From sequence record PP079210: DNA of 40,520 nt; one strand, 5' to 3'. The stretch comes from Escherichia phage phiYIO1-1. Positions 12,424-12,858 of this stretch are shown here, piece after piece. The first letter of the stretch is position 1. Each line of letters starts with the position of its first letter. The notes beneath the pieces are model-generated. The model worked only from the letters and a program-made list of their open reading frames with translations. It did not search any database and was not told the DNA's origin. The translations under genes were made by a program, and so were the position numbers.

Positions 12424-12858
12424 ATGTTTGATTGCATTGAGTGGACCGGGTGCCGAGACCGTTTCGGATACGGTATGCGAAAGGTCAACGGGAAAGTCCG
12501 TAGACTACATCTGATAGCCTTCGAGGAGGCGAACGGTCCTATACCTGAAGGAATGGTCGTGCGACATAAGTGTGACAACCCATCGTGTTACAACCCAGCA
12601 CACTTAGAGCTGGGGACACGGGCTGACAACAATCGTGATAGAGACGTAAGAGGTCGAACCGCTAAGGGAGTGAGGCATGGGAGTTCTAGGCTTACACCTG
12701 AAATAATACAAGAGGCCAAGGTGCTCTACGCAGGAGGTGGATGGACTCACCGCTCCCTAGGTGAGAAGTATGGAGTGGGCCACCGCACGATAGGTGAGAA
12801 GTATGGAGTGGGCCACCGCACGATAGCTAGAGCAATTGGAGGAGAAACATGGACTTAA
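12424..12858 (+). CDS. HNH homing endonuclease (free-standing) with C-terminal helix-turn-helix-like region
   Basis: 144 aa; HNH core HKCDNPSCYNPAHLELGTRADNNRDR; the C-terminal part holds a perfect in-frame 11-aa duplication (GEKYGVGHRTI x2) from a 33-bp tandem DNA repeat; sits between the gene 4 and gene 5 blocks. Confidence 0.85.
   Translation: MFDCIEWTGCRDRFGYGMRKVNGKVRRLHLIAFEEANGPIPEGMVVRHKCDNPSCYNPAHLELGTRADNNRDRDVRGRTAKGVRHGSSRLTPEIIQEAKVLYAGGGWTHRSLGEKYGVGHRTIGEKYGVGHRTIARAIGGETWT
12760..12825 (+). repeat. Perfect 33-bp tandem duplication inside the HNH endonuclease gene
   Basis: GGTGAGAAGTATGGAGTGGGCCACCGCACGATA at 12760-12792 is repeated exactly at 12793-12825. Confidence 0.9.

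Follow-up and report, generated by a model that had tools for sequence, protein, structure and literature searches.

The nearest described counterpart of the gene analyzed here is 7.7B of Citrobacter phage CR44b, annotated as a "predicted homing endonuclease" (CDM21552.1), which has orthologues in the Kayfunavirus phages EPr2, vB_EcoP-101118UKE1, and CLB_P1; in these phages, the gene occupies a slot between gene 4.3 and gene 5. HNH proteins of the gene 7.7 or 5.3 type in the T7 group (13a gp7.7, CR44b gp7.7) combine an HNH_3 domain with a C-terminal helix-turn-helix (HTH) in ~130 to 140 aa, and their genes are found between genes 7.3 and 8. I-HmuI of Bacillus phage SPO1 (PDB 1U3E) is a nicking HNH homing endonuclease of 174 aa with an additional DNA-binding sheet at its N terminus; its gene lies within a group I intron. 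Characterized members of the I-HmuI group of phage HNH homing endonucleases nick a single strand, a few nucleotides away from the site of insertion (PMC3428280). In Hafnia phage Ca, a 397-bp HNH homing endonuclease element that is present or absent beside the terminase gene has been described (PMC8861465).

We analyzed a window of 40,520 nt from Escherichia phage phiYIO1-1 (record PP079210). Sequence comparisons indicate that this is a K1F-like, T7-type Kayfunavirus and that the window contains its genome at unit length. Over the first 25 kb, the window is 94 to 97% identical to Escherichia phages vB_EcoP_F, SR04, phiHAO1-1, and others, and all of its long open reading frames (ORFs) are on the + strand. 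The window is colinear with vB_EcoP_F end to end, and its ends are adjacent in that circularly permuted record (7517|7518). The terminal regions of the window (1 to 340 and 40300 to 40520) have no long repeat in common, and the record is therefore taken as a unit-length genome that does not carry a second copy of the terminal repeat. Four segments have no counterpart in vB_EcoP_F (7385 to 7679, 9066 to 9323, 15215 to 15457, and 39383 to 40053) and are probably other differences in accessory genes. A 1,064-aa ORF at 32695 to 35889 (+ strand) is colinear with a gene annotated as an endosialidase in vB_EcoP_F, which suggests that the phage is specific for the K1 capsule.

The gene under study is a + strand ORF of 144 aa at positions 12424 to 12858. 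It shares with the CR44b 7.7B group the slot between genes 4.3 and 5, the overlap with the polymerase start, the HNH_3 core, and the HTH WTHRSLGEKYGVGHRTIARAIG, and its DNA is 99.2 to 99.6% identical to theirs outside a short tandem duplication. It differs from them in 11 additional residues within the HTH (144 versus 133 aa) and in its vB_EcoP_F-like backbone. We regard the gene itself as an orthologue of the already annotated 7.7B, judging from these alignments, and the sole new feature appears to be the private 11-residue duplication. The likeness to the other systems is more distant. The CLB_P1 record calls its copy similar to 13a gp7.7, but the slot between genes 7.3 and 8 is empty in the window, and DNA similarity to the gene 7.7 or 5.3 type is ~68% over the core. 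The window protein has 19% sequence identity to I-HmuI; unlike I-HmuI, it is encoded by a free-standing gene, at the 5' end of the polymerase gene. The element of Hafnia phage Ca is also a Kayfunavirus HNH presence/absence cassette that overlaps the start of a downstream essential gene (PMC8861465), but it matches a second HNH gene of the window and not the gene at 12424 to 12858. This second HNH_3 gene (37260 to 37646, + strand) encodes 128 aa with a weak AP2-like tail, lies in the same slot as the 397-bp Hafnia phage Ca element (PMC8861465), and is missing from vB_EcoP_F, to which window positions 37257 to 37666 do not align. The two HNH genes of the window were rejected as recent paralogues, with only 27% identity over 70 residues.

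The HNH gene upstream of gene 5 and its product

The original prediction placed an HNH nuclease gene between the primase-helicase and DNA polymerase genes, and both parts of this description were upheld: the flanking genes are located at 10461 to 12161 and 12849 to 15032, respectively, and the nuclease assignment agrees with domain, family, and fold comparisons. The Pfam family HNH_3 (PF13392) matched aa 27 to 71 with an E value of 2.1e-17 and a score of 62.9 bits (cutoff, 24.8), and several HNH or endonuclease families were matched in PHROG, the lowest E value being 3e-29. The window protein has each of the eight residues that do not vary among 69 aligned homologues (C4, H48, C50, C55, L61, N69, D72, and R78), as well as the nearly invariant H29, H60, and N57. 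The matched segment (12502 to 12636, + strand) corresponds to the ββα-metal nuclease core and contains H48, C50, C55, L61, and N69; C4, D72, and R78 fall just outside it. An AlphaFold2 model of the 144-aa protein (mean pLDDT, 83.8) has strands at aa 45 to 48 and 61 to 64 followed by a helix at aa 66 to 75 (pLDDT 93 to 97), elements that in the model would form the ββα-metal core. I-HmuI and I-PpoI were the best fold-comparison matches of the modeled protein, I-HmuI being the closest, and a sequence search of solved structures returned only one chance-level match (RimM; E value, 0.84).

The C-terminal part of the protein is modeled as a three-helix domain with a recognition helix, of the Hin, Tc3, or homeodomain-like type, and would bind DNA; its helix 1 (aa 92 to 103) is encoded at 12697 to 12732 (+ strand). 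The CR44b record annotates an HTH at aa 107 to 128 (WTHRSLGEKYGVGHRTIARAIG). Pfam HTH profiles matched the C terminus below threshold in every case (HTH_23, with E values of 0.02 to 0.05; GntR; Sigma70_r4), and more distant homologues have precomputed HTH_7, HTH_23, HTH_38, or Sigma70_r4 domains. Because the modeled C-terminal helices and the CR44b annotation cover the duplicated stretch, the duplication sits inside the HTH. Taken together, these analyses predict that the ORF at 12424 to 12858 encodes a free-standing HNH homing endonuclease with an N-terminal nuclease core and a C-terminal HTH, in the layout of I-HmuI.

The gene is preceded by a ribosome-binding site, GGAGGA (12412 to 12417, + strand), that serves the DNA polymerase, with the same ATGTTTGA, in relatives that do not carry the HNH gene. 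The final 10 nt of the ORF overlap the start of the polymerase gene. About 11 copies of an ~18-nt motif, CT(A/T)AACTATCACTATAGG, were observed across the window (1910, 4986, 6644, 7843, 10199, 17114, 19935, 20934, 25342, 32618, and 39947), and in sequence this motif resembles the promoters of T7-type phage RNA polymerases. None of the copies falls between 10229 and 17114, and transcription of the HNH gene therefore probably starts from the promoter-like copy at 10199. Neither sigma-70 promoter-like nor terminator-like sites were found in the interval from 12000 to 13000, and an Rfam search of the whole window matched no families. The minus-strand ORFs beneath the HNH gene (43 to 57 aa) were rejected as unsupported, all of the genes of this genome being on the + strand.

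A cassette at the start of the DNA polymerase gene

Among the phage records that match the flanks of this locus, ~12, representing 9 distinct phages, carry the HNH gene. The uninterrupted arrangement, allele A (ATGTTTGACCTTAAGAGTATCTGGGGT), is found in 112 records that are devoid of the HNH gene. In allele A, the upstream ribosome-binding site and ATGTTTGA start the polymerase directly, yielding a protein that begins with MFDLKSIWG; carriers use both elements for the HNH gene. Their polymerase is instead translated from a new site, GGAGGAG, and begins with MDLSNVYG. In the window, this ribosome-binding site and the ATG of the polymerase gene (12838 to 12851, + strand) are contained in the 3'-terminal part of the HNH gene, and the duplication stops 11 nt ahead of them. 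A third state, allele B (ATGGACTTAAGTAACGTATATGGG), occurs in TM1, Milel, and Bia (3 records); there is no HNH gene in these phages, and the MDLSNVYG start is joined to the old ribosome-binding site. Allele B is identical to the flank found in carriers, and on this sequence evidence it would be either the exact empty site or the product of a precise loss.

Relative to the common allele A, the mobile cassette would comprise positions 12432 to 12863 (+ strand), that is, the HNH coding sequence after ATGTTTGA, the new polymerase ribosome-binding site, and the variant polymerase start MDLSNVYG in place of MFDLKSIWG. Sliding-window comparison showed that the window is 98 to 100% identical to vB_EcoP_F, which does not have the HNH gene, up to position 12431 and again from position 12864. 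CR44b and EPr2 match the window at only 94 to 97% identity in their backbones but at 99.6% in the HNH gene. The boundaries of the cassette are sharp (12431/12432 and 12863/12864). This mosaic of identities implies that the segment from 12432 to 12863 is a recent arrival in an F-like backbone and brought almost no co-converted flank with it, a pattern that we read as the signature of homing. The gene also appears to combine sporadic presence at a fixed locus with discordance between cassette and backbone, as expected of free-standing homing genes. The locus thereby offers what seems a clean natural case of a homing cassette inserted precisely at the start codon of an essential gene, with hardly any flanking DNA co-converted.

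The first ~25 nt of gene 5 (12849 to 15032, + strand) differ between carriers and allele A, and the DNA around them is nearly identical. This ~25-nt stretch is a candidate homing and immunity site, and in genomes that do not carry the HNH gene it is the likely target of the enzyme. A target at the start of gene 5 is plausible because the nick made by I-HmuI-group enzymes falls near the site of insertion (PMC3428280). We propose that in a mixed infection the enzyme would nick or cut the gene-less allele near the gene 5 start, recombinational repair would then copy the cassette into the cut genome, and the variant polymerase start would shield carriers from cleavage. The three gene 5 start states that coexist in Kayfunavirus define a concrete candidate for this target site.

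Two observations concern the polymerase gene itself. The window polymerase has 727 aa, compared with 722 to 723 aa in relatives, as a result of small indels near 14243. In CLB_P1 (KC109329.1), which also carries the HNH gene, the DNA polymerase coding sequence is annotated as two joined pieces spanning 2,767 nt, versus ~2,170 nt, which suggests an intron-like interruption.

Ancestry and origin of the 33-bp tandem duplication

Direct comparison confirmed the exact, in-frame repeat that had been reported in this gene, in both coordinates and frame: positions 12760 to 12792 and 12793 to 12825 are identical 33-nt units, each GGTGAGAAGTATGGAGTGGGCCACCGCACGATA, and the + strand ORF consequently encodes GEKYGVGHRTI twice, at aa 113 to 123 and aa 124 to 134. 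Period-33 identity extends over 36 consecutive positions, and the perfect repeat covers 69 nt (12758 to 12826); because of this extension, TAG is found at both ends of the repeat. Tandem Repeats Finder independently recovered the same array, with a period of 33 and 2.4 copies. By our own arithmetic, the chance expectation of a 36-match run, over all positions and periods of 10 to 200, is ~1.6e-15. The 40,520-nt window contains one other exact tandem run with a period of at least 10, a 14-nt array near the left end (GTCCTACACCTACA, ~7 copies, 234 to 336).

The same gene is found at the same locus in nine other phages, in one copy and with a product of 133 aa. In CR44b, EPr2, vB_EcoP-101118UKE1, and CLB_P1, it is a 402-nt gene with a single copy of the unit, and in a phage collection the alignments to the carriers T147P5, ST17, CHX131, BDX03P1, and Bas105 reach through the first copy only. 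The eight nearest protein clusters in a database of 5.8 billion proteins each have 133 aa, and none of 120 homologues among the matches listed has an internal tandem repeat. A search of public records for the exact 144-aa protein returned no entry, and the duplication junction had no match in viral, metagenome, and genome contig collections. These comparisons indicate that the single copy is ancestral, which settles in the affirmative a question that the original prediction had left to HNH homologues: the nine related phages and the eight closest clusters agree.

Both copies in the window carry a GGC codon where relatives have GGA or GGT; therefore, the duplication is later than this lineage-specific substitution. 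Perfect identity of the copies had been taken to imply a very recent event. The recency stands, since the duplication is absent from the relatives and the private GGC is shared by both copies, but the identity of 33 nt alone is a weak clock, given that less than 1% separates the entire gene from that of CR44b. As evidence of recent origin, absence from every relative appears stronger than the perfect match, and the shared private codon adds to it. The structural mutation that the locus records in this selfish nuclease gene thus seems to be private and probably very young.

The single-copy sequence already holds an imperfect direct repeat, CACCGCnnnnTAG, with 10 of 13 positions matching and its members 33 nt apart. 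In the window, the upstream member, CACCGCTCCCTAG (12748 to 12760, + strand), lies 33 nt from CACCGCACGATAG (12781 to 12793, and again at 12814 to 12826), and its terminal TAG is the junction microhomology; the duplication junction is located in this TAG, which is common to both members. When every position of the de-duplicated genome was considered, 7% would give at least 3 nt of junction microhomology, and 12 of ~40,000 (0.03%) would give this together with at least 7 matches in the adjoining 10 nt. Slipped-strand mispairing is a well-known source of tandem duplications. A nascent strand ending in CACCGCACGATAG could have mispaired with the similar CACCGCTCCCTAG 33 nt upstream, after which the interval would have been copied again. 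Such slippage would have duplicated 33 bp in frame in the lineage of the window, after transfer of the cassette or possibly during its repair synthesis. A search of the literature on duplication between short repeats in T7 yielded nothing directly usable.

The original prediction offered an assembly artefact as the alternative to a recent event. Such an artefact could have arisen during assembly or finishing if a circular contig with a 33-nt k-mer overlap at its ends had been rotated to the conventional start and left untrimmed. The value of 33 is a standard de Bruijn k and the default k-mer size of a common assembler; the window ends abut in the permuted vB_EcoP_F record (7517|7518) with no second copy of the terminal repeat, as in an opened unit-length circle; and the junction occurs in no other public sequence. 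However, a contig-end overlap would fall at a random site, and here it would have fallen on a 33-nt-spaced repeat with 3 nt of microhomology. The words that recur in the ancestral sequence measure 6 and 3 nt, not enough to mislead an assembler, and the remainder of the genome is colinear with that of vB_EcoP_F, the nearest relative. Poor assembly in general was rejected, since comparison with vB_EcoP_F showed ordinary indels only and no further tandem duplications in the window. Given the geometry of the repeat, slipped-strand mispairing or template switching is favored over a contig-end artefact at a random position, and the positional statistics argue against a trivial artefact of that type. 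Because the duplication sits exactly on a preexisting 33-nt-spaced repeat, which few positions of the genome could offer, we consider an artefact unlikely, and less likely than originally implied.

A further tandem repeat was observed in a related record. vB_EcoP_F (KY295894.1) has at 19565 to 19752 a perfect repeat with a period of 101 nt (1.9 copies, 100% matches), and vB_EcoP_FFK3, which may carry it too, was matched at the same coordinates. The repeat is located immediately ahead of the polymerase gene, in the region of gene 4.3, which neighbors the gene analyzed here. A period of 101 nt is not divisible by 3, and the region has no annotated coding sequence; the repeat may reflect slippage in a nonessential region or an assembly artefact.

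Predicted consequences of the duplication

In the AlphaFold2 model of a 133-aa relative (pLDDT, 89.1), the C-terminal helices span aa 92 to 103, 109 to 116, and 120 to 127. In the model of the 144-aa protein, they span aa 92 to 103, 123 to 127, and 131 to 138, with copy 1 of the unit (12760 to 12792, + strand) as a low-confidence loop in which aa 113 to 117 have a pLDDT below 50; the position given to the 11-residue gap in the alignment steers this register, which is not independent evidence. Copy 2 (12793 to 12825, + strand), together with the original downstream ARAIGG, gives a contiguous helix 2-turn-helix 3, TIGEKYGVGHRTIARAIGG, in place of the ancestral SLGEKYGVGHRTIARAIGG. The two versions differ in that helix 2 begins with two conservative substitutions; isoleucine occurs at that position in at least one homologue, and the recognition helix HRTIARAI is unchanged. 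Since a contiguous HTH is re-formed, the mutation would in effect insert 11 residues into the loop that joins helices 1 and 2, and the nuclease core is inferred to be untouched. Judging from the models, a longer loop that is neutral or mildly damaging or destabilizing is likelier than a new specificity. It had been suggested that the repeat falls in the DNA-recognition part of the protein and could alter target specificity. The location within the HTH was borne out; altered specificity is the least supported part of that suggestion, given that both HRTIARAI and a contiguous HTH are kept. The duplication could also be a first step in the decay of this selfish gene.

We favor as the probable explanation of the locus a homing endonuclease cassette that was transferred and then underwent a slippage duplication acting as a loop insertion. 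Two other readings of a genuine duplication were weighed against it. The duplication might be adaptive, with a second HTH-like unit or a longer linker conferring a new or extended target. It is in frame and within the DNA-binding domain, two overlapping HTH registers can be read in the sequence, and homing endonucleases are pressed to track variation in their target sites, of which three start states of gene 5 coexist in the genus. Yet the duplication is seen in one genome only, the recognition helix is the same and the first copy is modeled as disordered, the local repeat geometry fully explains the origin with no need for selection, and 33-bp tandem copies are genetically unstable and usually transient. 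We therefore judge adaptation to be quite improbable. A more specific version, which we hold to be just as improbable, is that the duplication is a by-product of error-prone repair synthesis in the same homing event and that the longer linker shifts the spacing between recognition and cut or broadens target tolerance; if true, a homing endonuclease would have been caught changing its specificity through one slippage mutation. It is also conceivable that the HNH gene is not a homing element at all and instead encodes a nuclease that benefits the phage in packaging, replication, or attack on competitors, in which case the duplication would damage or tune an accessory function. Some phage HNH proteins do assist terminases, as discussed in PMC8861465, and the gene is translationally linked to that of the polymerase, but it adjoins the polymerase gene and not the terminase gene. 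Most relatives do not have it (112 uninterrupted records versus ~9 carrier phages), it forms a sharply bounded cassette in otherwise unrelated backbones, and its predicted fold is nearest to that of the homing enzyme I-HmuI; we regard a benefit to the phage as very improbable, marginally more so than adaptation. Under the favored explanation of cassette transfer followed by slippage, the duplication is probably real but ordinary and of small practical value.

An effect on polymerase translation at the RNA level was not supported: whether or not the duplication is present, the ribosome-binding site and ATG of the polymerase gene have the same predicted probability of being unpaired, 0.637.
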